Shown piece by piece: positions 1,700 to 62,583 of a stretch of 64,000 bases of DNA. The notes beneath the pieces were generated by a model. The model was not told the origin of the DNA, searched no databases, and worked only from the letters and a program-made list of their open reading frames with translations. Source of the stretch: Chloroflexota bacterium (GTDB taxonomy: Bacteria > Chloroflexota > Limnocylindria > Limnocylindrales > CSP1-4); NCBI GenBank assembly GCA_042408445.1, contig JBHORC010000023.1, positions 11,920-75,919 on the forward strand, written 5' to 3'. A program made the translations under genes and the position numbers. Positions within the stretch are counted from its first letter, which is position 1. Each line of letters opens with the position of its first letter.

Positions 1700-3688
1700 T
1701 TGACGGCGCCCGGATCGCACGGGCGTCGGATCGGTGGAAGCCGCCTGGCCGCTCTCGCCGTGATCGTGCTCGGCACGGCTGGCGTCGTCGGCGGCAGCAT
1801 CGCGCTGTCGACCGCGGACCACTCGGTCCCGTCCGTCCGGCCGTCCACGTCACCGATCACCGGCTCGTCGGCCCCGCGGCCGGTCCTCTCGGCGGACCCC
1901 GTGGGCCGCGCGTACCTCGACGCGAAGCTCCCGGACGACATCACGGACCCGCTCGGACCGGCCTCGATGAGCCCGACGTTCCAGATCGACGGCCGATGGT
2001 GGGCCGCGCTCCTGGATCCCGCGAGCCGGGAGACCCGGCTGTACGAGCTCGGCGCGGACGGAACGACGTGGCGCGACACCGGCCGCGTGCTCGACGAGCG
2101 GCCGGACGCCCGCGTCGACGTCGTCTGGACCGGGAAATCGCTCTACGTGGCGAGCGTCGTCCCGAGCAACGCATCGACGAGCGGGATCCGGATCAACCGC
2201 TACAAGCCGGACGCGAAGACGGGCTTCGTCCAGGAGTCGGACTTCCCGGTCGCGATCACCGACCGGGGTGTCGGCAGCCTCAGCTTCGCCCGGGACTCGA
2301 CCGGACGGCTCTGGATCGCCTTCGTCGAGGAGACGAAGATCGTCCTCGTCCACTCGCTGGACTCGGACTTCCTCTGGTCGCCACCGATCGCCCTCCCCGG
2401 CGAGGCGGCCGTCGGGCCGCGGGACTCCGCCGTCCTGCTGCCGTACGGGACCGGCCAGCTGGGGATCGCCTGGTCGTCCGTCGCGGGCAGCATCGTCCGG
2501 TTCGCGACTCGCGCGGATTCGAGCGATCCCGCGATCTGGTCGCAGCCCGAAACCGTCAGCGAGGGCGTCACCCTCCAGGACGGGCCGATCTCCGTGGCGG
2601 CGCAGCCGGACGGCGGCGTCGTCGTCGGGATCGCGGGCGACACCCGCGCGTCCGTCGGTGGGTCGTTGACGTCGGCGCGGATCGTCGTCGCCCGGCGTGA
2701 CGCAGCCGGCGGCTGGTCGTCGGCCGTCGCCGGCCGGGTCGAGGACCGCCACGACGGTGTGGCCGTGGCGGTCGATCCCACGAACAGCGAGATCGATCTG
2801 CTCATGATGCGCAACGCCAACGACGGGACGTCATGGGTCATGAAGCGGTCGACGACCGGGCGTCTCGAGTTCGATGCCGGGCCGGGTCTCGCCGTGACCG
2901 CCGGCACGCCGACCGGCGCCGAATTGTCCGCGCCGCACCTCGCGAAGGGACCGGCCGACCCGGCGACGGGCGTCCTGGTCGTCGGCTTCGATCCGGCGAG
3001 CCATCGCTACCTCCACGCGATCGTCCAGGCCGCGGACATCGCGGCCGGCAGCCCGCCGCCGACGCCCTCCGGCCCACCCCCCGCTGCGGCGGCACTGCCG
3101 CTGCTCCTCGTCGACGACACGTTCGAGCCGTACGCCCTCGGCACGAAGACCCCGGAAGGCTGGACGGTCTCCAACGGTGCGCTGGACACGAACATCACGG
3201 TGGCAAGCGCGCCCGGCCGCGGCCGCGTCCTGCACCTCGTGTCGACCGCCGGCGGCGAGACCCGCGCCTGCAAGACCTTCGCGACCGTCGATCGGGGTCG
3301 CCTCACCGCGTTCACCGTCGTCCGCGCGTCGGCCAACGGCACGACGGACGGGGTGATGATCAGCCTCCGCTTCCACGGCGACGAGGCGGTGACGACCCGG
3401 TTCGGGCAGGGCGGGACGTTCGCCTACTACGCCGGCCAGACGAAGGTCCGGACCCTCGCGGTCTGGGAGCCCGGCGTCTGGTACCGCTCGACCGTCGTCG
3501 TCGACCTGACGAAGCGAACCTGGGAATGGACCCTGACGAAGGAGGGGTTCAGCCGGGTGATCATCCGGGCCGTGTCGATCCCCTTCCGCGAGACGGCCGC
3601 GAAGTCTGTCGGCTCCGTCTGCGTCCAGACGGCAGCGGGGCGGGCCGGCCTCGGGCTTGACGTCGACCGGGTCGTCGTCAGCCGCTAG
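1700..3688 (+). CDS. secreted or anchored protein: N-terminal domain paralogous to the N-terminus of 9865..12930, plus C-terminal LamG/concanavalin-like domain
   Basis: TTG start and a signal/anchor (RLAALAVIVLGTAGVVGGSIAL). STGRLWIAFVEETKIVLVHS aligns with STGRLWATWVQNNQVVVTHT of the large protein. A PPPTPSGPPP linker precedes a lectin-like tail. Confidence 0.6.
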   Translation: MTAPGSHGRRIGGSRLAALAVIVLGTAGVVGGSIALSTADHSVPSVRPSTSPITGSSAPRPVLSADPVGRAYLDAKLPDDITDPLGPASMSPTFQIDGRWWAALLDPASRETRLYELGADGTTWRDTGRVLDERPDARVDVVWTGKSLYVASVVPSNASTSGIRINRYKPDAKTGFVQESDFPVAITDRGVGSLSFARDSTGRLWIAFVEETKIVLVHSLDSDFLWSPPIALPGEAAVGPRDSAVLLPYGTGQLGIAWSSVAGSIVRFATRADSSDPAIWSQPETVSEGVTLQDGPISVAAQPDGGVVVGIAGDTRASVGGSLTSARIVVARRDAAGGWSSAVAGRVEDRHDGVAVAVDPTNSEIDLLMMRNANDGTSWVMKRSTTGRLEFDAGPGLAVTAGTPTGAELSAPHLAKGPADPATGVLVVGFDPASHRYLHAIVQAADIAAGSPPPTPSGPPPAAAALPLLLVDDTFEPYALGTKTPEGWTVSNGALDTNITVASAPGRGRVLHLVSTAGGETRACKTFATVDRGRLTAFTVVRASANGTTDGVMISLRFHGDEAVTTRFGQGGTFAYYAGQTKVRTLAVWEPGVWYRSTVVVDLTKRTWEWTLTKEGFSRVIIRAVSIPFRETAAKSVGSVCVQTAAGRAGLGLDVDRVVVSR

Positions 3689-9864: not shown

Positions 9865-12800
9865 GTGGGTTTGTTCCGCGCCGCTCGTGACCGTCGTTCG
9901 CTCAGCCGTCGACGGATCGCCCCAAGAACCACGAGCGCTGGTGCGGCACTCCTCCTGGTCGCCAGCTCCTTCGTCGTCGCGCCGGTCGTCACGGCCGCGG
10001 CCGGCGACATCGGGTTCGAGGGTCCGAGCTACACCGGGTCGAGCTCCGCTCCGTCTGGCTCGAAGCCCGAGAGCAAGCTCTGGTACAACGACGGCATCTG
10101 GTGGGCGGATCTCTGGAGCACGACGGCGAACGTCTTCCATATCTGGAGGCTGGACCTCGCGGGCCACCAGTGGATCGACACCGGCGTTGCCGTGGACCGC
10201 AAGGGCACGCGGGCAGACGCACTGTGGGACGGGACCAAGCTCTACATCCTGTCGCACGTCTACTCGACTTCCCCGGCAACCGGCAACCCGATGCGGCTGT
10301 ACCGGTACAGCTACAACTCGACGACGAAGGCGTACTCCCTCGACTCCGGCTTTCCCGCGACGGTCTCCGACTACAAGACCGAGACTGCCGTCTTCGACAA
10401 GGATTCGACCGGCCGGCTGTGGGCGACCTGGGTCCAGAACAACCAGGTCGTCGTGACGCACACGAACGGCACCGACAACGTGTGGGTGACGCCGTTCGTC
10501 CTGCCCGCCACGGGCACAACGGTGGATCCGGACGACATCTCGTCGATCATCGCCTTCAAGAAGGCCGGCGGAACACCGCGCATCGGCGTGATGTGGAGCA
10601 ACCAGGTCGACAGCAAGATGCACTTCGCGTTCCACAACGACGGCGCCGCGGACAGCGCCTGGGACGACAGCGCGATTGCGCTGCAGGGCACGAAGAACGC
10701 GGACGACCACATCAACCTGAAGTCGCTGGATTCGGACAACAGCGGACGCATCTTCGCCGTCACGAAGACGAGCCAGACGACCGGCAGCGCGCCGCTGATC
10801 ATGCTGCTGACCTTCACCCCGTCCGGCACGGCCGGGACCTGGTCAGCGACAACGGTCTCGCGGGTGTCCGACGGGCCGACACGGCCGATCGTCATCATCG
10901 ATCAGCAGGCGATGCAGGCCCATGTCTACATGACCGGACCGGTCGCCCCGGCGACCACGGGCGACAACGGCGGGAAGATCGTCGAGAAGGTCTCGTCCCT
11001 GTCCACGCTCGGCTTCCCGGTCGGCGCGGGCACGACGGTGATGCAGGACGCCTCCAGCCCGGCCATCAACAACGTCTCCTCGACGAAGCAGAACGTCAAC
11101 GCGACGACCGGGCTCGTCCTGATCGCGGGCAACGACTCGACGAGCCAGTACTGGTGGGCCTACGACGCGCTGGGCGGCACGCCGCCGCCGCCCGCTCCAC
11201 CGGTCGCCGCGTTCACCGAGGCCCCGCCGAGCGGGCCCGCGCCGCTCACCGTCCAGTTCACGGACACCTCGTCCAACACGCCGGCGAGCTGGGATTGGGA
11301 TTTCGGTGACGCCACCGCCCACAGCATGGCCGCGAACCCGAGCCACACCTACACGAGTCCGGGCACCTACACGGTCACGCTCGTCGCCAAGAACGGCGAC
11401 GGCCAGGACGACGCCACGAACACCGTGACCGTCGGGCAGCCGCTCGCGACGCAGACGTTCACGCCGACCGCCGACTCCTTCACGAGCCAGGCGAGCCCGA
11501 CGAAGAACTATGGAACGGACGCCGCCCTTCGGGTCCGGAACAGCAGCTCGTCGTTCCGCTCGTTCCTGAAGTTCAACGTCACCGGCCTGAGCGGGACGGT
11601 GCAGTCGGTCAAGCTCCGGCTCTGGGTCAACGACGCCAGCGCCAACGGCGGCTCGGTCTATCCCGTCTCGAGCGCCTGGACGGAGACCGGCACCGGATCG
11701 ATCACGTGGAACACGGCTCCTGCCCTGCCGGGCTCAGCGCTGAATGCCGTTGGGCCGGTGACAGCCATCGGGACGTGGGCAGAGGTCGATCTCGGTGCCG
11801 CCGCGGTCGCTGGTAACGGCACGGTCAGCTTCGCGATCGCCGGCGGCTCGTCCGACAGCGCGTACTACTCGAGCCGGACCGGGACGAACGCACCGCAGCT
11901 CGTCGTCTCGACGGACAGCGGTGGCCCGCCGCCGCCCAAGCCGGTCGCCGACTTCACGGCAAGCCCGCTCAACCCGACGACCGGGCAGAGCGTCCAGTTC
12001 ACGGACCAGTCGACGAACACCCCAACCAGCTGGGACTGGGACTTCGGTGATGGAACGACGCATGGTTCCACCGCCAACCCGACCCACGCCTACGCGAACC
12101 CCGGGCAGTACACGGTCAAGCTCGTCGCGACGAACGGCGGGGGCGCAAGCGATCCGGCGACGAAGTCCGCCTACATCACCGTCAGTGCCGCGCCGCCGCC
12201 CGCTCCGGTTGCCGCGTTCCATGCGGACCGGACGACCGGCACGGCTCCACTGGCCGTCCAGTTCACAGACGATTCGACGAATAGCCCGACCAGCTGGGCG
12301 TGGGACTTCGACAACGACGGAACGACCGACTCGACCGCGCAGAACCCGTCGTTCATCTACACCGCCCCCGGGCCGTACAGCGTGAAGCTCACGGCATCGA
12401 ACCTCGGGGGACCGGGCTCCACGACGAAGTCGAGCTACATCACGGTCAGCAGCGGCTCGACCACGACCTCGACGTTCTTGTCGACCCAGGACACGCGGCC
12501 GAACCAGGCCAACCCGACGTCACTGACCGGCGGGACGGACCCGGTGCTTCGCGTGCGGCTCGACCCGACCGGCGCCTATCACACCCTCGTTCGCTTCAAC
12601 GTGACGGGGCTGGCGGGGACGATCACGTCGGCCAAGCTCCGCCTGTTCTGCACGGACGCCAGCCCGAATGGCGGGACCGCGTACAAGACGAGCGGCGCGT
12701 GGAGCGAGGCCACGACGAACTGGAACAACGCGCCCGCCGCGACGAGCGGTGCGGCCGGGACCGCGCTGAATGTGGTCGCCGGGGCGTGGGCCGAGTTCGA

Positions 12801-41465: not shown

Positions 41466-41541
41466 TGGAGCGGGAGACGGGGTTCGAACCCGCGACATTC
41501 AGCTTGGGAAGCTGACACTCTGCCAACTGAGTTACTCCCGC
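41466..41541 (-). tRNA. tRNA-Gly (anticodon CCC), CCA encoded
   Basis: Reverse complement is GCGGGAG-UA-ACUC-AGUUGGCA-GAGU-G-UCAGC-UUCCCAA-GCUGA-AUGUC-GCGGG-UUCGAAC-CCCGU-CUCCCGC-U-CCA, which folds into a clean cloverleaf. Confidence 0.93.
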
Positions 41542-44111: not shown

Positions 44112-44218
44112 CTCTTATCAAGAGTGGCGGAGGGACCGGCCCGTTGAAGCCACGACAACCTACCGACGTCGAGTCGGCAAGGTGCCAATTCCGGGCAGGT
44201 CCTCCTGCACGATAAGGG
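44112..44218 (+). promoter_or_regulatory. SAM-I (S-box) riboswitch aptamer
   Basis: CUCUUAUCAAGAGUGGCGGAGGGACCGGCCCGUUGAAGCCACGACAACC...AAGGUGCCAAUUCCGGGCAGG...CACGAUAAGGG matches the S-box core nearly base for base. P1 is CUCUUAUC/GAUAAGGG. Confidence 0.9.
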
Positions 44219-44253: not shown

Positions 44254-44303
44254 TCCTCGTGTCCGGTCCGCTCCTCGTCGCTCCATCCGCCGCAGGAGCC
44301 GAC

Positions 44304-45632
44304 ATGACGACCGAGATGGCACCGTTCCGAACGACCGAGCCCGAGCCCCGGGCGGGCCGGCCGGTCATGGCTGCGGAACGGATTCGCGGGCTCGTCTGTC
44401 GTCGCTGCGGCCGGCCGGAGACGCTCGGACCGTCCTACGTCTGCTCGGCCTGCTTCGGGCCCCTCGAGGTCGCGTACGACCGGGACGTCGTCCGCGAAGC
44501 GCTGAGCCGCGAGTCGATCGAGGCTCGCCGACCCGGCATCTGGCGGTATCTCGAATTCCTGCCCGTGGACGCGCCGCCGGCCCGTGCGCTCGCCGTCGGC
44601 TCGACGCCGCTCGTGCCCGCGGAGCGACTCGGTCCGGCGATCGGCGTCGATCGGCTCTGGCTGAAGGACGACAGCCGCAACCCGACGCTCTCGTTCAAGG
44701 ACCGGGCGGTGGCCGTGGCGGTCGCCCGCGCGGCGACCTTCGGGATCGAGACGCTCGCCTGCGCCTCCACCGGAAACCTCGCCGGAGCGACTGCCGCTGC
44801 CGCGGCCGCGGTCGGCATGCCCGCGTACGTCTTCATCCCCGCCGATCTCGAGCGGCCGAAGGTCGACCACGCCCTGGCGTATGGCGCCACCGTCGTCCCC
44901 GTCGACGGGACCTACGACGACGTGAACCGGCTCTGCCTCCAGGTCGCCGACGAGCTCGGCTGGGGGTTCGTCAACGTCAATCTGCGGCCGTTCTACGCCG
45001 AAGGGAGCAAGACCCTCGCCTTCGAGATCGCCGAATCGCTCGGCTGGCGCTCGCCGGACGTCATCGTCGCGCCGATCGCCTCCGGGGCGATGTTCACGAG
45101 GCTCGCCCGCGGGTTCGAGGAGCTCGCCGATGCCGGCCTCATCCACCGCCGTCCGATCCGCTTCGTCGGGGGTCAGGCCGCCGGCTGTTCGCCGGTCGCG
45201 ACGGCCTGGGGACGCGGCGAGGAGGTCCAGCCGGTGCGGAACCCGGAGACGTTCGTCCACTCGCTGGCGATCGGCAATCCGGCCGACGGCGACGCCTCGG
45301 TCGAGCTCGCGACGGCAACCGCGGGTTCGATCGAGGCGATCGAGGATCGGGACACCGCGGCCGCGATCCGCGACATCGCAACGCTCGAGGGGATCTACAC
45401 GGAGACAGCGGGCGGCGTGACGGTGGCCGCGGCCGCGGCCGCCCGACGACGCCGCGTGATCCGCGACGGCGACGAGGTCGTCGCGATCCTCTCCGGCAAC
45501 GGGATGAAGACGCCCGACGCTCGGCTCCTCGGCGGCGGCGAGCGCGAGGCGCGGCCCGGTCGGCCCGGTCTCGCGCCGGTCATCCGCCCGCGACTCGACG
45601 ACTTCGAGGGCTGGCTGGAGGGACGGGCATGA
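44304..45632 (+). CDS. threonine-synthase-like PLP enzyme with N-terminal zinc ribbon (MetM-type homocysteine synthase candidate)
   Basis: GCAGGAG RBS 5 nt before ATG 44304. CRRCG...CSACFG. PLP-lysine region SFKDRAV and ACASTGNLAG. Confidence 0.75.
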   Translation: MTTEMAPFRTTEPEPRAGRPVMAAERIRGLVCRRCGRPETLGPSYVCSACFGPLEVAYDRDVVREALSRESIEARRPGIWRYLEFLPVDAPPARALAVGSTPLVPAERLGPAIGVDRLWLKDDSRNPTLSFKDRAVAVAVARAATFGIETLACASTGNLAGATAAAAAAVGMPAYVFIPADLERPKVDHALAYGATVVPVDGTYDDVNRLCLQVADELGWGFVNVNLRPFYAEGSKTLAFEIAESLGWRSPDVIVAPIASGAMFTRLARGFEELADAGLIHRRPIRFVGGQAAGCSPVATAWGRGEEVQPVRNPETFVHSLAIGNPADGDASVELATATAGSIEAIEDRDTAAAIRDIATLEGIYTETAGGVTVAAAAAARRRRVIRDGDEVVAILSGNGMKTPDARLLGGGEREARPGRPGLAPVIRPRLDDFEGWLEGRA

Positions 45633-48727: not shown

Positions 48728-49633
48728 ATGGCGATGCCGCAGACCGGGATCTTTGCCCTCGGGACGATGTCCCATGCCTACCTCGAGTTCGATGCCCGTC
48801 CCGACGCCGACCCGGTCTCGCTCGTCCGCGACGTGGCCGGTCTTCGGGAGCCGCGGACGACGATCGGCGGTGTCAACGTGGTCGCCGGGTTCCGGCCGGA
48901 GCTCTGGGCGGCGGTCGCCCCGGACGACGCGCCGCCACGCCTCCGCGGGTTCAACGAGCCGGTCGTGGGGCGGGACGGCTACACGATGCCCGCCACCCAG
49001 CACGACGTCGTTGTATGGATCACCGGCGCGTCGTACGACGCCGTGTTCGACGTCGAGCGGCTCGTCACCGAGGCGCTCCGGCCGCACGCCGACGTCGCCC
49101 GGGAGATGGTCGGCTGGCCGTACCACCACGATCACGACCTGACGGGCTTCGTCGACGGAACCGAGAACCCGACCCTGGTCGAGGCGCCGTCCGAGATCGC
49201 GATCGAGCCGGGGCAGCCGGGCGAAGGCGGCACCGTGCTCCTGCTCCAGCAGTGGCAGCACGATGCGCGGGCGTGGGAGACGCTGCCGGTCGCCGATCAG
49301 GAGCGGGCGATGGGCCGCGAGAAGGCGGAGGGCGACGAGCTGGACCCGCTGCCCCCGACGTCGCACGTGGCGCGGACGGACCAGGACACGTTCGGGAAGA
49401 TCTTCCGGCGGAACATCGGCTACGGGACGCTGCTCGACCACGGGACGATCTTCGTCGGCTTCGCCCGGGATCGGGAGCGCCTCGAGGCGATGCTCGAATC
49501 CATGGTCGCGCGGGCCGGGGTCGGTCGGGACGAGCTGACGCGGTTCACCCATCCGCTCACCGGTGCCTACTACTTCGTCCCGGCCGCGGAGGCGCTCTCG
49601 AGGAGCTGGCCGACGACGCCACGGCCGGGCTGA
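48728..49633 (+). CDS. Dyp-type peroxidase
   Basis: QTGIF, HDLTGFVDGTENP (GxxDG) and IFRRNIGYG. Confidence 0.85.
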   Translation: MAMPQTGIFALGTMSHAYLEFDARPDADPVSLVRDVAGLREPRTTIGGVNVVAGFRPELWAAVAPDDAPPRLRGFNEPVVGRDGYTMPATQHDVVVWITGASYDAVFDVERLVTEALRPHADVAREMVGWPYHHDHDLTGFVDGTENPTLVEAPSEIAIEPGQPGEGGTVLLLQQWQHDARAWETLPVADQERAMGREKAEGDELDPLPPTSHVARTDQDTFGKIFRRNIGYGTLLDHGTIFVGFARDRERLEAMLESMVARAGVGRDELTRFTHPLTGAYYFVPAAEALSRSWPTTPRPG

Positions 49634-49736
49634 ACCGGCGGCCGCGCTCCCCCGGCTCGTTCTTCCACATTGAATATTTCCACTGACGACCGGATATCCC
49701 TTGCATTGTTGCTGGCCGTGCGGCACGATCCCCGTG

Positions 49737-49808
49737 ATGCGCTGGCTTCCTTCGGTCGACTCGAAGAAGAAGCTCCGGCGGCCCGACGTCCGGGCCCTGG
49801 GGCGGTAG
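49737..49808 (+). CDS. candidate regulatory leader peptide, 23 aa with KKK (MRWLPSVDSKKKLRRPDVRALGR)
   Basis: ATG 49737 and TAG 49806. AAG AAG AAG at 49764-72. A possible TTGCAT(49701)-17nt-CACGAT(49724) promoter would put the transcription start at or next to the ATG, making the mRNA leaderless. Confidence 0.4.
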   Translation: MRWLPSVDSKKKLRRPDVRALGR

Positions 49809-49858
49809 CCGGCGCGCACAACGCACGACGGGAGCCTCCAGGGATCGGAGGCTCAGGG

Positions 49859-49892
49859 GCCGCGGCACCACGAAGGTGACCGCGGCTTTTTT
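49859..49892 (+). terminator. intrinsic terminator upstream of dapB
   Basis: GCCGCGGCACC-ACGAA-GGTGACCGCGGC (11 bp, one bulged A) followed by TTTTTT. I noticed no other run of this length while reading; not systematically searched. Confidence 0.7.
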
Positions 49893-49929
49893 GTTGCCTC
49901 CGGACCGGCTCAACCAACCGGAGGACGAC

Positions 49930-50679
49930 ATGACGACGATCGTGATGGGCGACGGCGCGCTGGGACAGGCTGTCGCGGGAGCGTTGCGGCGACGAGGCGA
50001 CGACGTCCAACTCGTCGGCCGGCCGCGTGGCGGGCGGCACGAAGCGGCGACCTTCGCGGCGGCCGATCTCGTCGTCGAGGCCTCGCGCGGGTCCTCCGTC
50101 CTGCCCAACGTGCGAGCGGCGGTTGCCGGCGGAGCCCGCCGGTTCGTCATCGCGACGACGGCCTGGGACGGCGATCGCGACGAGGTCCAGGCGACCCTCC
50201 GACGGTCGGGCGCGGCTGCCGTCGCCGCTCCCAACTTCAGCATCGGCGTCTCACTGTTCGCGCGTCTCGTCGACCAGGCCGCGGTGCTCTTCGGCGCCGT
50301 TGAAGGCTTCGAGCCGTACCTCGTCGAGTGGCACCGGCGGACGAAGACGGATCGGCCGTCCGGCACGGCGCGCATGCTCGCGAGCCGGATCGCAGCCGCC
50401 ACTGACGCCTCCTCGCACAGCCCGGAGCTCGAAGTCGTGTCGGTTCGTGCCGGCTCGTCGCCCGGCATGCATCTCGTCGGGTTCGATGCGGCCGGCGAGA
50501 CCGTCGAGCTGCGTCTGACCGCCCGTGATCGGTCGGCATACGTCGCCGGGATGCTCGCCGCGGCCGATTGGCTCGCCCGTTCATCGCGGACGCCCGGACT
50601 CCATCCGTTCGATCCGGTGGTCGACGAGCTGCTCGCCCGTGGCTCCAGCCCTCGCGAGACGCGCCTAGCCGCGTCGTGA
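49930..50679 (+). CDS. dapB: 4-hydroxy-tetrahydrodipicolinate reductase
   Basis: GGAGGA RBS. APNFSIGV and EWHRRTKTDRPSGTA. Confidence 0.85.
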   Translation: MTTIVMGDGALGQAVAGALRRRGDDVQLVGRPRGGRHEAATFAAADLVVEASRGSSVLPNVRAAVAGGARRFVIATTAWDGDRDEVQATLRRSGAAAVAAPNFSIGVSLFARLVDQAAVLFGAVEGFEPYLVEWHRRTKTDRPSGTARMLASRIAAATDASSHSPELEVVSVRAGSSPGMHLVGFDAAGETVELRLTARDRSAYVAGMLAAADWLARSSRTPGLHPFDPVVDELLARGSSPRETRLAAS

Positions 50680-50714
50680 CCCGTCCAACCCAGCCCCACT
50701 TCGAAGGAGAACCG

Positions 50715-51722
50715 ATGACTCCCCGACCTGTTCCCGCCGATCGCCCCTGGCTTCGTGGAGCGTTCACCGCGCTCGTCACCCCCTTTGCCGAGGACGGCGC
50801 GATCGACGAGGCCGAATTCCGCCGTCTCGTCGCGTGGCAGCTCCTCGCCGGCATCGACGGCCTCGTTCCCGTCGGCACGACCGGCGAGGCGCCGACGTTG
50901 TCCGCGGGCGAGCGGGAGCGACTGATCGCCCTGACGGTCGAGGCAGCCTCCGCGGCGGGTCCGGACCGTCGCGTCCCGGTCATCGCCGGGACCGGGACGA
51001 ACGACACGCGGGCGACGATCACGGCGACCCGCCGGGCGGCAGAGCTCGGCGCGGACGCCGCGCTCGTCGTCGTGCCCTACTACAACCGGCCGGACGCGCG
51101 GATGCTCCGGGCCCACTTCGAGGCCGTTGCCGAGGACGGCGACCTCCCGATCGTCGTCTACAACGTCCCGGGACGAACCGGCACGAACGTGGACGCGGAC
51201 ACGTTCCTGCGACTCGCCGAGCACCCACGCGTCGTGGCGGTGAAGGAGGCGAGCGGCAACCTCGAGCAGCTCGCCGTGATCTGCCGGGATCGGCCGCGGG
51301 ACGTCGCGGTCCTGTCGGGCGACGACGCCGCAACCCTCGCGATCCTCGCGATGGGCGGCGACGGCGTCGTCTCCGTCGCGTCGAACGAGATCCCGGGCGA
51401 GATGGCGTCCCTGTGCGCTGCGGCGATCGACGGGCGATGGGACGACGCGCGGCGGATCCACGAGCGCTGGCTGCCGTTGATGCGGGCCAACTTCCAGGGC
51501 GCACCGTCGCCCGTGCCCGTGAAGGCGGCGCTCGCCGCGATGGGCCTCGTCGCCTCGGACACGCTCCGGGCGCCGATGCTCCCGCTGGAGGAGGGGCCGC
51601 GGACGCGCCTCCTCGCACTGCTCCGCGATCTGGCGCTCATCGACGGCGGTGGCCGGTTCGCGGTCCGTCCGTCCGCGGCCAACGCGGCGGTCCGCCGGGA
51701 CAGTGCGGAGGCGGTGGCATGA
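50715..51722 (+). CDS. dapA: 4-hydroxy-tetrahydrodipicolinate synthase
   Basis: ALVTPF, GTTGEAPTL, VVYNVPGRTG and AVKEASG. Confidence 0.9.
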   Translation: MTPRPVPADRPWLRGAFTALVTPFAEDGAIDEAEFRRLVAWQLLAGIDGLVPVGTTGEAPTLSAGERERLIALTVEAASAAGPDRRVPVIAGTGTNDTRATITATRRAAELGADAALVVVPYYNRPDARMLRAHFEAVAEDGDLPIVVYNVPGRTGTNVDADTFLRLAEHPRVVAVKEASGNLEQLAVICRDRPRDVAVLSGDDAATLAILAMGGDGVVSVASNEIPGEMASLCAAAIDGRWDDARRIHERWLPLMRANFQGAPSPVPVKAALAAMGLVASDTLRAPMLPLEEGPRTRLLALLRDLALIDGGGRFAVRPSAANAAVRRDSAEAVA

Positions 51723-52564
51723 CGGCGCTCCAGCACCCCACGCTCGAGCTCGACGTCGCCGCGTCGGGCCGGCGTCGGCCCGGCCCCAACACCGCCGTGA
51801 ATGCCTCCGCGATCCTCGACGACCTCGAGACGGGCCGGCTGCGCGCGGCCGAGCCGGACGGCAACGCCCCGGACGGCTGGCGCGTGCGCCCCGACGTCAA
51901 GTCGGCGATCCTCGCGTCCTTCGCCGACCGGACCACGGTCGACTGGACGGCGGGGCCGCTCACCTTCCGGGACCGCGTGGCGCTCGGGCCACGGGCAGAC
52001 CTCGCGGGTGGTCCGTGGCGGATTGTCCCCGGCGGGACCGCCGTGCGGCGCGGCGCGCATCTCGCTGACGGCGTCGTGGTGATGCCACCCTCGTACATCA
52101 ACGTCGGGGCGTGGGTGGGCGAGGCGACGATGGTCGACTCGCACGTGCTGGTGGGGTCGTGCGCCCAGATCGGCGCCAGCGTGCATCTCGCCGCGGGCGT
52201 CCTCATCGGCGGCGTGCTCGAACCGCCGGGAGCACGGCCCGTCATCGTCGAGGACGAGGCCTTCGTCGGCGCGGGTGCATGCCTGCTCGAGGGCGTGCTC
52301 GTCGCCCGCCGTGCCGTCATCGCGGCGGGGGTCATCCTCACCGGAACGTCTCGGCTGTACGACGTCGTCGCGGGCCGGGTCCTGGAGGGTTCGCCGGCGC
52401 GGCCGCTCGTCGTTCCGCCCGGGGCCGTCGTCGTCCCCGGCACGCGGGCCATCGAGGGCGCCTTTGCCGCGTCGCACGGACTCGCCGCCTCGACGGCCCT
52501 GATCGTCAAGCACCGTGACGAGCGGACCGACGCCCGGGTCGCGCTCGAGGAGGCGCTCCGGTGA
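51719..52564 (+). CDS. dapD: 2,3,4,5-tetrahydropyridine-2,6-dicarboxylate N-acyl(succinyl)transferase
   Basis: Left-handed hexapeptide repeats (VGAWVGEATMVDSHVLVGSCAQIGASVHLAAGVLIGG) and a DapD-like N-terminus. ATGA overlap with dapA. Confidence 0.75.
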   Translation: MTALQHPTLELDVAASGRRRPGPNTAVNASAILDDLETGRLRAAEPDGNAPDGWRVRPDVKSAILASFADRTTVDWTAGPLTFRDRVALGPRADLAGGPWRIVPGGTAVRRGAHLADGVVVMPPSYINVGAWVGEATMVDSHVLVGSCAQIGASVHLAAGVLIGGVLEPPGARPVIVEDEAFVGAGACLLEGVLVARRAVIAAGVILTGTSRLYDVVAGRVLEGSPARPLVVPPGAVVVPGTRAIEGAFAASHGLAASTALIVKHRDERTDARVALEEALR

Positions 52565-53928
52565 CGCCGGTCGCGACGGGTGAGGCGCCCGCCGTCGCCT
52601 CGATTGGTGGGCCGCAACCCAACCACGAGATCCGCTCGGCGGACGGGCTCGCCGGCCTCGACCCGGCGGAGCTCGCGGCGCGGTTCGGGACCCCGGCGTA
52701 CCTGTACGACTTCGACTGCATCGCGCGACGCCAGTCGGCGCTCCGCGCGGCCCTGCCGAAGCGCGTGGACATCGCGTACGCGGTGAAGGCCAACCCGGCG
52801 CTCGCCGTCGTCGACCTGCTCGGGCGGCTCGGCGCAGGTGCCGATGTGGCATCCGCCGGAGAGCTGGCGACGGCCCTCGCGGCCGGCGTCGATCCCCGCC
52901 GGATCGTCATGACCGGCCCCGGCAAGCGGGACGATGAGCTGGCGGCTGCTGTCCGGGCCGGGATCCGCGCCGTCACGGTCGAGTCGCTGGGAGAGCTGGG
53001 CCGCCTCGAGGCGCTCGCCGCTGCCCGGCCGCGGGACGTGGCGCCCGTTCCGGTCATGCTCCGGCTCGCCGTTCGCGCCGACGCGGGCTTCGAGCGGACC
53101 CGCCTCGTCGGCGATGACGGCGCCGGCAAGTTCGGAATGGACCGCTCCGACGTCCGGGAGGGAGCCGCCCGAATCGCCCGCTCTCCGCACCTTCGCCTGG
53201 TGGGACTGCACGCGTTCGGGGCATCGAACGTCCTCGATGCGGACACGCTGCTCACCCACGCTCGCGCCACCGTTCGGGCGGCCCGCGAGCTGGCCGCCGA
53301 AACGCGCCTCCCGCTCGAGGTCATCGACGTCGGCGGCGGTCTCGGGATCGCCTACGCCGACGGCGAGGAGCCGCTCGACATCGATGCGCTCGGCGTCGGA
53401 TACGCGCGGCTGATCGACGAGCTGGCCGCGGATCCTCTCCTCGCGCGCGCACGCCTGCTCGTCGAGCCGGGCCGCTGGCTGGTCGGGCCGGCTGGCGCGT
53501 ACCTGTCGCGGGTCGTCGACCGGAAGGTCGTCAACGGCCGGGAGGTCGCGATCCTGGACGGCGGGATCCATCACGTGCTCCGGCCCGCGCTGGTTCGCCA
53601 GGAGCATCGGCTCGCGGCCTTCCCGGGAGCGTCGACCGCGAACACCGCCGGCCCGGAGGGGCGTTCTCCACGACCCGTCACGATCGCCGGACCCCTCTGT
53701 TCCGGTCTCGACGTCCTCGCCCGGAACGTCGAGTGCGGCGACCTCGGCGTCGGCGCGCTCGTCGCCATCCTCGATGTTGGCGCCTATGGCTTCACGGAAT
53801 CGATAGCGCTCTTCCTGTCGCACCCGATCCCGCCGGAGATCGCGATCCGCGGCGGGCGTGCCGAGGTCATCCGCCCGCGCCAGGAGCCCGAGGAGTGGCT
53901 GCGCCGCCAGGTCGTTCCGCGCTGGTGA
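52561..53928 (+). CDS. lysA: diaminopimelate decarboxylase (fold-III PLP decarboxylase)
   Basis: FGTPAYLYD, AYAVKANP and VIDVGGGLGI. GTGA overlap with dapD. Confidence 0.8.
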   Translation: MTPVATGEAPAVASIGGPQPNHEIRSADGLAGLDPAELAARFGTPAYLYDFDCIARRQSALRAALPKRVDIAYAVKANPALAVVDLLGRLGAGADVASAGELATALAAGVDPRRIVMTGPGKRDDELAAAVRAGIRAVTVESLGELGRLEALAAARPRDVAPVPVMLRLAVRADAGFERTRLVGDDGAGKFGMDRSDVREGAARIARSPHLRLVGLHAFGASNVLDADTLLTHARATVRAARELAAETRLPLEVIDVGGGLGIAYADGEEPLDIDALGVGYARLIDELAADPLLARARLLVEPGRWLVGPAGAYLSRVVDRKVVNGREVAILDGGIHHVLRPALVRQEHRLAAFPGASTANTAGPEGRSPRPVTIAGPLCSGLDVLARNVECGDLGVGALVAILDVGAYGFTESIALFLSHPIPPEIAIRGGRAEVIRPRQEPEEWLRRQVVPRW

Positions 53929-54015
53929 CCTCGCCCGCCGCGGACGCCGGCCACGCCGCCGACGCCGCGGGCCCCGCCACCCTCCTCGCGGGGCGACATC
54001 GGGCACGATCCGGAG

Positions 54016-54534
54016 ATGCGGATCGCCGTCGTCTCGGACACCCACCTGCCGCGGTTCGGGCGAGCCCTGCCTCGCGCCCTCCGGGACGGGATCCACGCCG
54101 CACGAGCCGACCTGATCCTGCATCTCGGCGACTTCACCGGCCCCGAGGTCCCGGAGCTGTTCGAGGCGCTCGGGCCCTTCGACGCCGTTGCGGGCAACAA
54201 CGACGACGAAGGCCTGGTCGCCCGGTTCGGCCGGCGGAAGGTCGTCCAGGTCGGCGCGGTCCGTCTGGGCCTCACCCACGGCGATCTCGGCGTCGGCCGC
54301 ACGACACCGCGTCGCGCCGCGAGCGCCTTCGGGCCGGACGAGGTCGAGATCGTCCTCTTCGGCCACAGCCACATCCCGCTCGTCCAGCGGCTCGACGACG
54401 GCCGCTGGCTCGTGAACCCCGGCTCGCCCACGGACCGGCGCCGCCAGCCGCGCTATTCGTGGGCCCAGATCGAGATCGCGTCGAGGGCCGACATTCGACC
54501 GGAGCTCCGCTTCTTCGACGACCGATCTCCCTGA
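54016..54534 (+). CDS. YfcE/MJ0936-type metallophosphoesterase
   Basis: MRIAVVSDTHLP, HLGDF, AGNND, FGHSH and NPGS. Confidence 0.8.
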   Translation: MRIAVVSDTHLPRFGRALPRALRDGIHAARADLILHLGDFTGPEVPELFEALGPFDAVAGNNDDEGLVARFGRRKVVQVGAVRLGLTHGDLGVGRTTPRRAASAFGPDEVEIVLFGHSHIPLVQRLDDGRWLVNPGSPTDRRRQPRYSWAQIEIASRADIRPELRFFDDRSP

Positions 54535-54630
54535 CGACGGCGATCAGACCGGGTCGTCGCGAGCCGGAACCGGCCGCTTCGGCGACGATGTCGCCTTCGC
54601 CCGCCCAAACCGCATCGTCAGGAGCCGCTG

Positions 54631-55152
54631 GTGGACATCGACCTGTCGCAGATCCTCGCCCCGGATACACCGGTCCTCGAGATCGTCATCCGGGGGACGA
54701 TCGTCTATCTCGCCCTCTTCCTGCTGCTCCGGCTGACCGGCAAACGGCAGACCGGAGGGGTGGGCGTGTCGGACCTGCTCGTGATCGTGCTGATCGCCGA
54801 CGCGGCGCAGAACGCCATGGCCGGCCAGTACAACTCGGTCAGCGACGGGATCATCCTGGTCGCGACGATCATCTTCTGGGCCTACGCCATCGACTGGCTG
54901 GGCTACCACGTGCCCCGCGTCGAGCGGTTCGTCCATCCGGACCCGCTGCTCCTCATCGAGAACGGACGCACGCTCCCGAAGAACCTTCGCTCGGAGCTGC
55001 TGACCCACGAGGAGCTGATGTCCGAGCTGCGGGCGCAGGGTGTCGATTCGATCTCCGCCGTGTCTCGCGCCTACCTGGAGGGCAACGGCCAGCTGACCGT
55101 TGTCAAGCAGGACGGGAGCTCCGAGCCGAAGCCCAAGAAGCAGATGGGGTGA
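54631..55152 (+). CDS. DUF421 (YetF-like) membrane protein
   Basis: AGGAG RBS and GTG 54631. LLRLTGKRQ...DLLVIVLIADAAQNAM. Confidence 0.65.
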   Translation: MDIDLSQILAPDTPVLEIVIRGTIVYLALFLLLRLTGKRQTGGVGVSDLLVIVLIADAAQNAMAGQYNSVSDGIILVATIIFWAYAIDWLGYHVPRVERFVHPDPLLLIENGRTLPKNLRSELLTHEELMSELRAQGVDSISAVSRAYLEGNGQLTVVKQDGSSEPKPKKQMG

Positions 55153-55781
55153 CGGACGCCCCTGGCCCCGCGGTCGTCTTCGATCTCGGCGGCGTCCTCA
55201 TCGACTGGGATCCCCGCTACCTCTATCGCTCCATCTTCGACGACGAGGCGCGGATGGAGACGTTCCTCGCCACGGTCACGACGAGGGAATGGAACCTCGC
55301 CCAGGACGCCGGACGGCCCTGGTCGGAGGCCGTCGAGGAGCTCGCAACCCGGTATCCGGAGTGGCGCGACGAAATTCACGCCTACTGGCAGCGGTGGCCC
55401 GAGACGCTCGGTGACGCGATCGAGCCGACCGTCGAGATCCTCGCCGAGCTTCGCGCCGCCGGTGTCCCGCTCTACGCATTGAGCAACTGGTCCGCGGAAA
55501 CCTTCTCGTTCGCCGAGGGCCGCTATCCGTTCCTGGCGTGGTTCGCCGGGATCGTTGTCTCCGGCTTCGAGCGGCTCGTGAAGCCGGACCCGCGGATCTT
55601 CCGGGTCCTCCTGGACCGGTACGGGCTCGACGCCGGCGACACGATCTTCGTCGACGACCAGCCGGCGAACGTGGAGGCCGCGCGCGGCGTCGGGATGCAC
55701 GCCCTCCGGTTCGTCGACGCGCCGACGCTCCGAGCGGACCTCGCAACGTTCGGGCTCCTGGAGCCGGCCGACGGGTCGTGA
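55149..55781 (+). CDS. HAD-superfamily hydrolase
   Basis: VVFDLGGVLIDW, LSNWS, KPDPRIF and FVDDQPANVEAA. GTGA overlap with the upstream gene. Confidence 0.8.
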   Translation: MTDAPGPAVVFDLGGVLIDWDPRYLYRSIFDDEARMETFLATVTTREWNLAQDAGRPWSEAVEELATRYPEWRDEIHAYWQRWPETLGDAIEPTVEILAELRAAGVPLYALSNWSAETFSFAEGRYPFLAWFAGIVVSGFERLVKPDPRIFRVLLDRYGLDAGDTIFVDDQPANVEAARGVGMHALRFVDAPTLRADLATFGLLEPADGS

Positions 55782-62022: not shown

Positions 62023-62583
62023 GTGCGACCAACCCGTCTGGTCGCGGGCGCGGCGCTCACCGCCGCCCTCGCCCTGGGTTCGTTGCCGGCCATCGCGGCA
62101 TCTGCTGGGCCTGTGCCCGCCGCCGTCGTGGACCCGGCGACGTTCCAGTCCTTGAACAGCAACGCGTTCGCGACCGTCGGAGCCACGACGGTGTCCGTCG
62201 ATTCGCGGTTCGCCGGACAGGGCCGTGTCGATGCCACGACGACCTTCACGGAACCCGGCACGGCGCCGGCGATCGTCGTTCGTGGCCGCCCCAGCGTCAC
62301 GCTCCCCGGGGCCCACAGCGGTTCGGCGCTCAAGCCGCCGCGCTACACGCTGACGGGCGTCGCGACCTTTTACGGCAACGGGACCACGGCGATGCGCCTG
62401 CCGCGCGGCACGACGATCGTCGTGTGCGGCGGCGGTGGCTGCCTCGAGCGGATCGTGACGGACTACGGTCCGGTCCTGTCCTCGAAGAACCGGATCATCG
62501 ACCTCTACACGCCGGACTTCTTCGCCGTCTGCGGTTGTCCCTCATGGTCGGGGACGACCAGGGTGACTGTCTCGGTCTACTGA
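62023..62583 (+). CDS. secreted RlpA-like double-psi beta-barrel protein
   Basis: Signal peptide, then TGVATFYGNG...VVCGGGGCLERIVTDYGP...IDL. Confidence 0.65.
   Translation: MRPTRLVAGAALTAALALGSLPAIAASAGPVPAAVVDPATFQSLNSNAFATVGATTVSVDSRFAGQGRVDATTTFTEPGTAPAIVVRGRPSVTLPGAHSGSALKPPRYTLTGVATFYGNGTTAMRLPRGTTIVVCGGGGCLERIVTDYGPVLSSKNRIIDLYTPDFFAVCGCPSWSGTTRVTVSVY

Follow-up and report, generated by a model that had tools for sequence, protein, structure and literature searches.

The window, by which we mean the whole 64-kb stretch of DNA analysed here, carries on its forward strand a lysine biosynthesis operon, dapB-dapA-dapD-lysA (49930..53928), delimited by Pfam matches and start codons. These matches agree with the gene assignment made in an earlier reading of the letters without database searches (hereafter the sequence-only reading). 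From its ATG start at 49930, dapB extends to 50679 and is followed by dapA (50715-51722), dapD (51719-52564) and lysA (52561-53928), all on the same strand; because dapA, dapD and lysA overlap as ATGA and GTGA, these three genes are tightly coupled. Upstream lies dyp, a Dyp peroxidase gene (48728-49633), and the gap between dyp and dapB measures 296 nt, rather than the 297 nt first given. Lysine biosynthesis is a textbook case of control by L-box riboswitches or regulatory proteins. For the leader in this gap, the sequence-only reading had proposed the architecture of ribosome-mediated attenuation, keyed to lysine.

We compared the locus with 80 orthologous loci from species-level genomes of Candidatus Limnocylindrales, an abundant uncultured group of soil Chloroflexota. 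A leader of ~200 nt precedes dapB in 80/80 of these genomes (among the matches listed). About 150 more distant dapB loci lie outside this sample, and one locus (L046) was left out because a scaffold join across a run of Ns duplicates its leader. As far as the flanks reach, dapB is followed by dapA in 79 loci, dapD in 76 and lysA in 56. The linkage to dapB is exclusive at the level of sequence: a pattern scan of metagenomes for the leader returned dapB contexts only, with dapB downstream in all 63 evaluable contigs, and no other copies were found in the window or the 80 loci by fuzzy motif searching. A covariance model, run on the window with its filters off, scored the leader itself at 126.5 bits and gave one additional chance partial match at 11377-11435, within a coding region. 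In none of the 80 loci is dyp upstream of dapB, whereas every one of them has the leader; we therefore rejected the possibility, raised in the sequence-only reading, that the terminator described below simply ends the dyp transcript, since it goes with dapB and not with dyp.

The predicted leaderless leader ORF, MRWLPSVDSKKKLRRPDVRALGR, spans 49737..49808 on the forward strand, from ATG 49737 to the TAG stop at 49806-08, and contains three regulatory Lys codons, AAG AAG AAG, at 49764..49772. Both had been placed at these positions before, and alignment of the orthologous leaders, the comparison suggested at the time, shows that frame, start, stop position and Lys codons are all conserved. An uninterrupted, in-frame ORF is found in 79 of 80 leaders (the L080 leader is frameshifted, and a 1-nt deletion in L064 shifts the stop), and the AAG columns of Lys1 and Lys3 are invariant in 80/80. 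In the 79 intact leaders, the middle codon encodes Lys 67 times, Gln 4, Ala 3, Ser 2, Glu 2 and Arg once; 65 of these ORFs begin with ATG and 14 with GTG. Three stop codons, TGA (48 leaders), TAG (22) and TAA (9), interchange at a single position at which TGG never occurs; this position is codon 27 in 61 canonical-length leaders, including all 54 unique ones. Lys1 is preceded by 10, 9, 12 or 6 codons. Variation in ORF length comes in multiples of three, and the spacer 3' of the stop occurs in all lengths of 23-31 nt and, as outliers, 20 and 33 nt. In relatives from the window's clade, the peptide reads MRWL..KKKLRRP.xRALG(R/L), followed by the stop. The segment from Lys1 to the stop has 92.6% nucleotide identity, versus 69% for dapB coding DNA. 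The regulatory codons number only two or three.

Lysine is rare in the surrounding proteins, as had been judged by eye: it makes up 1.07% of the 24,288 residues translated from the window's high-GC3 ORFs, and KKK is absent from these translations. AAGAAGAAG has a single occurrence on either strand of the 64-kb window. Three representative leader peptides matched none of the families in Pfam or NCBIfam at E <= 10. Stop-codon counts in alternative frames were also tried as a coding test and set aside as uninformative in GC-rich sequence.

Immediately 5' of the ORF is a predicted promoter (49701..49729, forward strand), with a -35 element TTGCAT at 49701-06, a 17-nt spacer and a -10 element CACGAT at 49724-29. 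These coordinates, too, had been given correctly, and the pattern TTGCAT-17-nAnnnT is conserved in the 80 loci at a fixed distance from the start codon. Counted in 77 of them, the end of the -10 element lies 6-7 nt from the start codon in 58 loci and 10 nt from it in 7, and in 76 of the 77 the promoter-anchored start sets the same frame as that of the ORF. The -10 element of the window-clade relatives is CAGCAT, CAGACT or GACACT. Because the predicted ORF starts 6-7 nt past a conserved promoter, we propose that its mRNA is leaderless. An in-frame GTG lies at 49734, upstream of ATG 49737, and no Shine-Dalgarno (SD)-like sequence was noticed by eye 5' of the leader start codon. A generic sigma-70 scan of the window did not call the predicted promoter. 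Two repeat arrangements around it were examined and rejected: an operator in the form of an inverted repeat, TTGCA..TGCAA, was no better than shuffles in most loci, and a direct repeat of the -10-like hexamer 5' of the -35 element was not above permuted partners (2.44 versus 2.29 +/- 0.09).

The leader RNA is predicted to be highly structured, with a folding z of -5.9 for 49730-49945 and 0/200 shuffles folding as well. In the minimum-energy fold, a long-range helix, P0 (49738..49816, forward strand, as are all the elements that follow), joins the 5' end of the ORF (49738-47) to 49807-16, at and just past the stop, and encloses two hairpins. P1 (49745..49773), also obtained by folding, holds the Lys codons in its 3' arm, and P2 (49772..49803), the proposed anti-antiterminator, reaches from the last base of Lys3 to 2 nt before the stop. 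The sequence-only reading had listed hairpins at 49780-96 and 49832-54; the second stands as given, whereas the first is present but forms only the apical part of P2. Downstream of the ORF are P3 (49832..49854; GAGCCUCC/GGAGGCUC), 98.6% paired across the 80 sequences, and P4 (49859..49892; GCCGCGGCACC/GGUGaCCGCGGC, then U6), an intrinsic terminator that is 98.8% paired across the same set. The terminator is the 11-bp stem (49859-86) and T6 run (49887-92) recognized earlier, with the addition of one bulged A. A simple terminator scan missed P4 because of this bulge, and a fold-based scan of either strand of the window returned it as the only convincing hairpin-plus-T-run. We argue for a selected terminator function of P4 from this uniqueness in 64 kb and from its lower stem, which is nearly invariant across loci. 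A last hairpin (49892..49930), found in minimum-energy folds and reaching the dapB start codon, is predicted to sequester the dapB SD sequence (GGAGG, 49920-24). In it, CCTCCGG at 49897-903 pairs with CCGGAGG at 49918-24, covering the GGAGG before the dapB ATG, exactly as the sequence-only reading had it.

These predicted structures are conserved across the family. The terminator-state structure as a whole is 93.1% paired, compared with 34-50% for slid controls, and contains 12 pairs changed on both sides, versus 4.9 +/- 1.3 in shuffles (0/500 reach 12). P1 contributes 5 such pairs, P2 (98.3% paired) 3, and the P0 homologue of the main family, CGCCG:CGGCG (87% paired), 2. One P1 pair (columns 33-42), CG in 36 sequences and GC in 19, is aligned to TCC/TCG, a synonymous Ser change. 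The apical loop of P2 is clade-dependent; the window clade lacks 6 nt of it, which keeps the frame. Covariation is sparse, the core being almost invariant.

A promoter, an ORF and a terminator of its own would also suit an independent small-protein gene, or a terminator merely ending the dyp transcript, in either case unconnected to dapB regulation, and gene callers do occasionally call small ORFs at the leader. We regard this as highly improbable. The unit always lies directly 5' of dapB, in 80/80 genomes and 63/63 contigs, with dyp absent upstream in 80/80; the ~40-60 nt between the terminator and dapB are filled by the SD hairpin, no promoter-like sequence being noticed there by eye; and substitutions in the N-terminal half of the peptide fall on all codon positions.

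The degree of conservation raises a different alternative, namely that the leader acts as RNA only, either as a riboswitch of a new kind, responding to lysine or an intermediate of the pathway, or as the target of an RNA-binding protein, with the ORF features as by-products. From Lys1 to the terminator, mean nucleotide identity is 87.5%, versus 69% for dapB; stems and linker are conserved beyond what a simple attenuator needs, and the leader contains the repeated motifs GGC(C)UCCAGGG and GGCGGCCC. An RNA-only regulator would, however, leave unexplained the ATG or GTG at a leaderless distance from the promoter, the three interchangeable stops at one position that is never TGG and the multiple-of-3 indels found inside the ORF only. 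The clade of L057, L076 and L079, moreover, retains AAG-x-AAG with no CUUCU-type P1 partner for the Lys codons visible by eye, and the clade differences in the P2 apical loop also speak against it. Rfam searches point the same way. No L-box (RF00168) or T-box (RF00230) was matched, at E <= 10 in 49550-50050 or at the gathering threshold in the window and 10 loci, and other Rfam families gave nothing relevant at the leader (E <= 10) or, at the gathering threshold, in the window and the 10 loci. We therefore consider RNA-only control improbable.

Conservation of the peptide itself could instead reflect a nascent arrest peptide of the kind exemplified by TnaC and SpeFL, which would sense free lysine or another metabolite rather than tRNA-Lys charging. 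Its C-terminal half, LWRPCREARALGL, is nearly invariant, and the position of the stop codon is fixed. This conservation, however, is at the nucleotide level, includes synonymous sites and coincides with P2, and the C-terminal half differs in the window clade (LRRPDVRALGR). A lysine-induced stall at the stop would also be expected to expose the P2 5' arm and favor read-through, which is the wrong direction for a biosynthetic operon. Taken together, these points make an arrest peptide very unlikely.

Attenuation calls for an antiterminator that excludes the terminator, and the sequence-only reading had not been able to draw a convincing one by eye. The 3' arm of P3, together with the linker at 49855-58, can pair instead with the 3' arm of P2. 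This alternative fold is 95.6% paired, compared with 37-55% for slid controls, and includes two compensatory pairs that use linker bases unpaired in the terminator fold. These compensatory events come from two clades only, and in six loci a 5-7-nt insert between P3 and P4 shortens the alternative helix. The proposed antiterminator reaches just the first ~5 nt of the terminator. Pairing of the P2 5' arm with the 5' arm of P4 did not clearly outperform shuffled, GC-rich arms (p = 0.008-0.27).

We modeled the effect of ribosome position under two masks, one in which all RNA 5' of the ribosome front was masked and a stricter one that covered only the footprint, P-12 to P+15, and left the RNA behind the ribosome free. 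Under the first mask, the median cost of freeing the terminator 5' arm was 11 kcal/mol when Lys1 occupied the A site and 3.8 kcal/mol when the ribosome was at the stop, the former exceeding the latter in 80/80 sequences. Under the footprint-only mask, the cost was 6-8 kcal/mol in all ribosome states; in the window's own sequence it peaked when the ribosome stood at the stop. Equilibrium folding of the full-length RNA retained the terminator in every ribosome state modeled. A conserved alternative fold with two compensatory changes is thus present, but its dependence on ribosome position appears under one mask and not under the stricter one, and its thermodynamic support as an antiterminator appears to depend on the ribosome model.

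This dependence bears on a further alternative, in which the leader ORF senses lysine by stalling but the output is dapB translation, through the SD hairpin, or mRNA stability, with P4 acting as a leaky constitutive terminator or merely a structural hairpin. An antiterminator that is not thermodynamically robust is compatible with such an output, as are the imperfect U-tracts of several loci (such as GGCAUUUCG and GGCUUCGUG). In the 70 loci evaluated, the core of the dapB SD is at least 80% paired in the minimum-energy fold of 61, with arm sequences that differ by clade, and the mycobacterial precedent discussed below works through sequestration of the ribosome-binding site (RBS). However, the SD hairpin is local and lies ~100 nt beyond the ORF stop, and equilibrium modeling of SD release on stalling showed no change in dapB SD accessibility between ribosome states. 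That P4 is the sole hairpin-plus-T-run in 64 kb, with its conserved lower stem, also favors a selected terminator function. An output other than termination is, in our assessment, unlikely, although less so than the alternatives considered above.

We therefore favor, with confidence somewhat above even, the reading in which the element is a cis-acting, lysine-responsive, ribosome-mediated attenuator of dapB-dapA-dapD-lysA built on a leaderless leader ORF. The conserved ORF, Lys codons, promoter spacing and terminator, together with the lack of an L-box or T-box match, support the lysine-keyed architecture first proposed from the letters. In this attenuator, transcription would start at or within a few nucleotides of AUG 49737, and a 70S ribosome would bind directly at this 5'-terminal start codon. 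With ample charged tRNA-Lys, the ribosome would pass the three AAGs, reach the stop and leave, after which P0/P1/P2, P3 and P4 would fold locally and most transcripts would end at the U-tract (49887-92); the same outcome would be expected if no ribosome loaded. When charged tRNA-Lys is scarce, the ribosome would wait at the AAG codons and, because these abut the P2 5' arm, would hold the outer stem of P2 open. The freed P2 3' arm (49794-49803) could then pair with the P3 3' arm and the P3-P4 linker (49850-49858), and the freed P2 5' arm (GCGGC, 49777-49781) with the start of the terminator 5' arm (49859-49863). This downstream pairing would delay the terminator and let RNA polymerase continue into dapB. 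In this model we infer that the ORF is translated and that ribosomes stall at its Lys codons, and likewise which pairing acts as antiterminator and in which direction the operon responds.

At the level of the lineage, we consider it slightly better than an even chance that these leaders constitute an undescribed family of RNA/peptide regulators in Candidatus Limnocylindrales, in which a leaderless AAG-x-AAG ORF (mostly AAG-AAG-AAG) attenuates a lysine operon of the diaminopimelate (DAP) pathway in the place of an L-box. Such a family would be the first Lys-keyed attenuator of a DAP operon and the first leader-peptide attenuator in the phylum, and it would combine leaderless translation, a terminator and an SD hairpin. 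If so, lysine too came under the oldest logic of attenuation, in a lineage so far without culture, and a leaderless short ORF has served a second, independent time as an amino-acid sensor, outside Actinobacteria, which would suggest that such "ribulon" control is common among high-GC bacteria rich in leaderless mRNAs. The leader family provides a well-defined model (R1) for annotating Limnocylindria genomes, and the leader is a candidate for a compact, portable lysine-responsive part in heterologous hosts.

L-box riboswitches are the described RNA mechanism for lysine (PMC1262725). Like the L-box (RF00168), which often ends in a terminator, the element described here is a cis-acting leader of lysine biosynthesis genes; unlike it, the leader spans ~155 nt, of which ~70 nt are a predicted translated ORF. 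The literature that we searched contained no lysine leader-peptide attenuator. Attenuation by a Lys-codon leader peptide was reportedly described by Tsubouchi and colleagues in the Journal of Biological Chemistry in 2005 for the alpha-aminoadipate (AAA) lysine cluster of Thermus thermophilus, and to our knowledge this would be the only precedent for Lys-keyed attenuation. The sequence-only reading was thus fair in calling a Lys-codon leader peptide unusual, although the reported Thermus case means that such a peptide is not unprecedented. By that description, both leaders place tandem Lys codons before lysine biosynthetic genes, whereas the pathway (DAP here, AAA there), the phylum and the leader sequence differ.

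The classical attenuators include trpL, hisL, leuL, thrL, ilvL and pheL, as well as ilvB1 of Mycobacterium tuberculosis (PMC13236596). With these the Limnocylindrales leader shares a short ORF with codons for the pathway end product, hairpins and an intrinsic terminator between that ORF and the first biosynthetic gene, a stop codon beside a hairpin that we propose to be the anti-antiterminator and, as proposed, a response in which stalling leads to read-through. It departs from them in being keyed to lysine, in its predicted leaderless ORF without an SD, in having only two or three regulatory codons, in the extra hairpin P3 and long-range helix P0, in a putative antiterminator that overlaps only ~5 nt of the terminator and in its host lineage, Chloroflexota (Limnocylindrales).

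In the leaderless polycysteine short ORFs of mycobacteria, a stalled ribosome blocks an RBS-sequestering duplex, resulting in translational control (Canestrari et al., bioRxiv 10.1101/834739). The leader described here concerns another amino acid in another phylum, has no sequence similarity to these ORFs and, unlike them, interposes a strong intrinsic terminator, with an SD hairpin that is local. As in mycobacteria, the first cistron of the amino-acid operon is predicted to be a leaderless short ORF, and this ORF has consecutive codons for the cognate amino acid; the RBS downstream is predicted to be sequestered in a hairpin and, as we propose, a stalled ribosome would remodel the structure of the mRNA downstream.

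The flank 5′ of dapB contains all the elements described in the sequence-only reading, at the coordinates proposed there. On the forward strand, a promoter (TTGCAT at 49701–49706, a 17-nt spacer and CACGAT at 49724–49729) precedes a leader ORF of 23 codons, MRWLPSVDSKKKLRRPDVRALGR, which extends from the ATG at 49737 to the TAG at 49806–49808 and includes three consecutive Lys codons (AAG AAG AAG, 49764–49772; Lys1–Lys3). The hairpin at 49780–49796 is the apical part of a longer one (49772–49803). Downstream lie a second hairpin (49832–49854), a terminator with an 11-bp stem (49859–49886) interrupted by a single bulged A and followed by T6, and a CCTCCGG/CCGGAGG hairpin that covers the dapB ribosome-binding site. 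The leader is flanked by a Dyp peroxidase gene (48728–49633) and by dapB (49930–50679, +, 249 aa), with dapA, dapD and lysA following on the same strand through overlapping start and stop codons (within 49930–53928). Its folding energy has a z-score of −5.9 relative to shuffled sequences, and a fold-based scan of both strands recovers the proposed strong terminator as the sole convincing hairpin-plus-T-run in the 64-kb window. A generic scan of the window did not call this stem because of its bulge. Ordinary gene ends in the window seem to lack canonical terminators; the fold-based scan also returned a weak second candidate at 62368, within an ORF.

DapB homologs place the organism in Chloroflexota, Candidatus Limnocylindrales. 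The window DapB is short, its N-terminal Rossmann domain scores 22.4 bits against Pfam DapB_N, below the curated cut-off of 25.6, and some relatives are recorded only as 'dihydrodipicolinate reductase C-terminal domain-containing protein'. At the other end of the operon, a long mechanical ORF (53733–55781, +) overlaps the end of lysA; its HAD hydrolase domain is restricted to residues 480–654, and the true gene start is therefore probably much farther downstream. A second ORF, DUF421/YetF-like, occupies 54631–55152.

Among eighty species-representative genomes, the same leader lies 5′ of dapB in all 80 and, as far as the flanks reach, dapA follows dapB in 79, with dapD present in 76 and lysA in 56. 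None of the 80 has dyp upstream of dapB; the unit of promoter, ORF and terminator is therefore linked to dapB. Scanning metagenomes with AAGAAGAAGCTCYGGCGGCCC returned at least 120 stretches. In the 80 loci listed, dapB lies downstream in 60, 17 end too early for evaluation and the remaining three diverge after the first ~10 dapB codons; with these three included, dapB is downstream in 63 of 63 evaluable loci among the matches listed. The three contigs (L097, L116 and L119) all break at the same place, passing from dapB codons up to ILGD into unrelated sequence, a pattern suggestive of chimeric assembly across conserved sequence. Neither the window nor the flanks of the loci contain a second leader copy; two copies around a run of N in one locus (L046, ~2580–3000) are a scaffolding artefact.

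The terminator-state fold comprises five helices: P0 (49738–49816) pairs the 5′ end of the ORF with bases just past its stop, the 3′ arm of P1 (49745–49773) holds the Lys codons, P2 (49772–49803) runs from the last base of Lys3 to 2 nt short of the stop, P3 (49832–49854) is the hairpin between the ORF and P4, and P4 (49859–49892) is the terminator. Across 80 sequences the fold is 93.1% paired (slid controls, 34–50%), with 12 pairs changed on both sides as against 4.9 ± 1.3 after shuffling (0 of 500 shuffles reach 12). The clearest covariation joins P1 columns 33 and 42 (33–42), CG in 36 sequences and GC in 19; both sides read TCC/TCG, a synonymous Ser codon change, which fits translation combined with pairing. 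P2 has compensatory changes in two orthologous loci (L061 and L070), and there is little variation in P3 or the lower P4 stem. Mean pairwise nucleotide identity reaches 92.6% from Lys1 to the stop and 89.8% from P3 to P4, and is 71% in the spacer 3′ of the stop, 69% in dapB coding DNA and 62% in the N-terminal part of the ORF. A conserved spacer 5′ of P3, GACGACGAA (49820–49831), is complementary to the U-tract and following bases, UUCGUUGUC (49887–49896); in the full-length fold of one ortholog (L001) the equivalents pair, enclosing P3 and P4. This predicted helix may be chance or a helper of the terminator.

The reading frame proposed for the leader ORF withstood comparison. Its start codon is ATG in 65 loci and GTG in 14, and in 76 of 77 the first ATG or GTG past the conserved −10 shares the frame of the Lys codons, a count that takes in seven loci reading CATGTG, where GTG is the homologous position. 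Start and Lys1 lie 30, 27, 36 or 18 nt apart, each a multiple of three, and the P2 loop is 6 nt shorter in the window clade; the non-coding spacer 3′ of the stop shows every length between 23 and 31 nt, and outliers measure 20 and 33. The stop is TGA in 48, TAG in 22 and TAA in 9. In canonical-length leaders it always falls at codon 27, and TGG never occupies this position, even though both varying positions often carry G. The only real exception to the frame is L080, from an MFD-series MAG that we take to be a long-read assembly, where a 1-nt deletion leaves the start codon in another frame; in L064, a 1-nt deletion inside P2 moves the stop three codons (9 nt) downstream. These deletions may be assembly errors or real ORF decay. 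Codons 2–10 show variation in each of their three positions, and the peptide sequence is therefore not itself conserved; codons 14–26, which coincide with P2, are nearly invariant at the nucleotide level. The window's closer relatives (L081–L085 and L027) encode MRWL..(S/A)KKKLRRP(D/E)xRALG(R/L), then TAG, TAA or TGA. By these signatures, the leader ORF behaves like a translated one.

Conservation of the Lys triplet is complete for its outer codons and partial for the middle one: Lys1 and Lys3 are AAG in 80 of 80 independently aligned sequences, and the middle codon is Lys in 67 of 79, otherwise Q, A, S, E or R. In L012, K-A-K (AAG GCG AAG) is paired with a CUUCU-to-CGUCU change in the P1 5′ arm, and in L061 and L070 K-E-K accompanies UCUCC; these matched changes keep P1 paired while the outer Lys codons stay. 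The L057/L076/L079 clade retains K-x-K with no CUUCU partner visible by eye, which argues for a constraint acting at the codon level. Lysine is as scarce locally as had been supposed, at 1.07% of the 24,288 residues in high-GC3 ORFs of the window, from which KKK is absent; AAGAAGAAG occurs once in the window. Against this overall value, DapB has 1 Lys in 249 residues, DapA 2 in ~335 and LysA 5 in 455, a paucity that fits the need to make these enzymes during lysine starvation.

The proposed promoter is likewise conserved: TTGCAT, the 17-nt spacing and an nAnnnT pattern recur across loci, with TATGGT as the −10 in most. The window's CACGAT is weak, yet it retains A2 and T6, as do CAGCAT, CAGACT and GACACT in relatives. 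From the −10 end to the start codon there are 6–7 nt in 58 of 77 loci and 10 nt in a subgroup, and no Shine–Dalgarno (SD)-like sequence was seen by eye before the start in the loci; we infer a transcription start that would yield a leaderless mRNA. Six loci (L004, L014, L041, L067, L068 and L080) form a leader subtype that combines the 10-nt gap with a 5–7-nt P3–P4 insert. Just 5′ of the −35 (window 49660–49700; ~8–14 nt upstream in the loci) lies a conserved A/T-rich element, which reads GGAAATGG in the majority of loci and, in the window clade, GAATATTTCC...GGATATCC. It may serve as an UP-like element or as the site of a regulator; neither a promoter inverted repeat nor a covarying direct repeat reached significance when tested.

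A search for mutually exclusive leader structures, which the sequence-only reading had called for, yielded a conserved alternative fold but no displacement of the terminator at equilibrium. In this fold, the P2 3′ arm CCCUGGGGCU pairs with GGCUCCAGGG, comprising the P3 3′ arm and the P3–P4 linker, and GCGGC of the P2 5′ arm pairs with GCCGC, the first terminator bases. It is 95.6% paired across the alignment (slid controls, 37–55%). Two of its pairs change in a compensatory way, the L057 clade having U-A in place of C-G and L061 and L070 having C-G in place of U-A; each pair uses linker bases left unpaired in the terminator fold. When the RNA was modeled as ending at the P4 loop, with everything up to the ribosome front masked, the median cost of freeing the terminator 5′ arm fell from 11 kcal/mol when Lys1 occupied the A site to 7.1 for Lys2 and 3.8 for a ribosome at the stop, and the Lys1 cost exceeded the stop cost in 80 of 80 sequences. 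Full-length equilibrium folds retained the terminator in all ribosome states, and masking the footprint only gave no difference between states (6–8 kcal/mol each), with the highest cost for the window sequence in the stop state. The duplex of the P2 and terminator 5′ arms has no clear advantage over shuffled GC-rich arms, and in the six insert-bearing loci the alternative helix is shortened. Given these mixed results, we take the modeled antiterminator as plausible only, in part backed by covariation. The SD core of dapB lies at least 80% within a local hairpin in 61 of 70 loci, with arm sequences that differ between clades; in the models its accessibility is unlinked to ribosome position on the leader ORF.

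Searches of Rfam 15 returned no match for the dapB leader, neither L-box nor T-box, even at E ≤ 10, and none in ten orthologous loci; the leader peptide matches no Pfam or NCBIfam family. Elsewhere in the window Rfam finds a SAM riboswitch and a tRNA. The host thus employs a riboswitch, at 44112–44218 (+; SAM-I, 74.4 bits, E = 1.4e-15), but not for lysine; it presumably serves sulfur amino-acid metabolism. The gene directly 3′ encodes a PLP-dependent (PALP family) enzyme (44259–45632, +), and the window scan found no hairpin-plus-T-run after the riboswitch, so its expression platform is probably translational. The window's only tRNA is tRNA-Gly(CCC) (41466–41541, −).

On balance, the element is probably a lysine-keyed, ribosome-mediated attenuator acting on a leaderless ORF. 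Sequence comparison establishes the anatomy and conservation of the leader, its coding signatures, invariant Lys codons, linkage to dapB and lack of a known riboswitch; the mechanistic steps, namely ORF translation, ribosome stalling and antitermination, and the direction of response are inferred. The attenuation originally proposed is supported in all but its antiterminator step.

The Thermus thermophilus alpha-aminoadipate lysine cluster reportedly has a Lys-codon leader-peptide attenuator; we found no lysine leader-peptide attenuator in the literature searched. A comparative survey of Actinobacteria identified no RNA element at lysine operons; the RNA mechanism it names for lysine is the L-box (PMC1262725). 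The novelty of the dapB leader is that it is lysine-keyed, leaderless and in Chloroflexota, without an Rfam, Pfam or NCBIfam entry. It follows the logic of the trp, his, leu and ilv attenuators, a scheme described for the Mycobacterium tuberculosis ilvB1 leader (PMC13236596), and its leaderless sensory ORF is similar to the poly-Cys short ORFs of mycobacteria, whose target is sequestration of the ribosome-binding site (bioRxiv 10.1101/834739).
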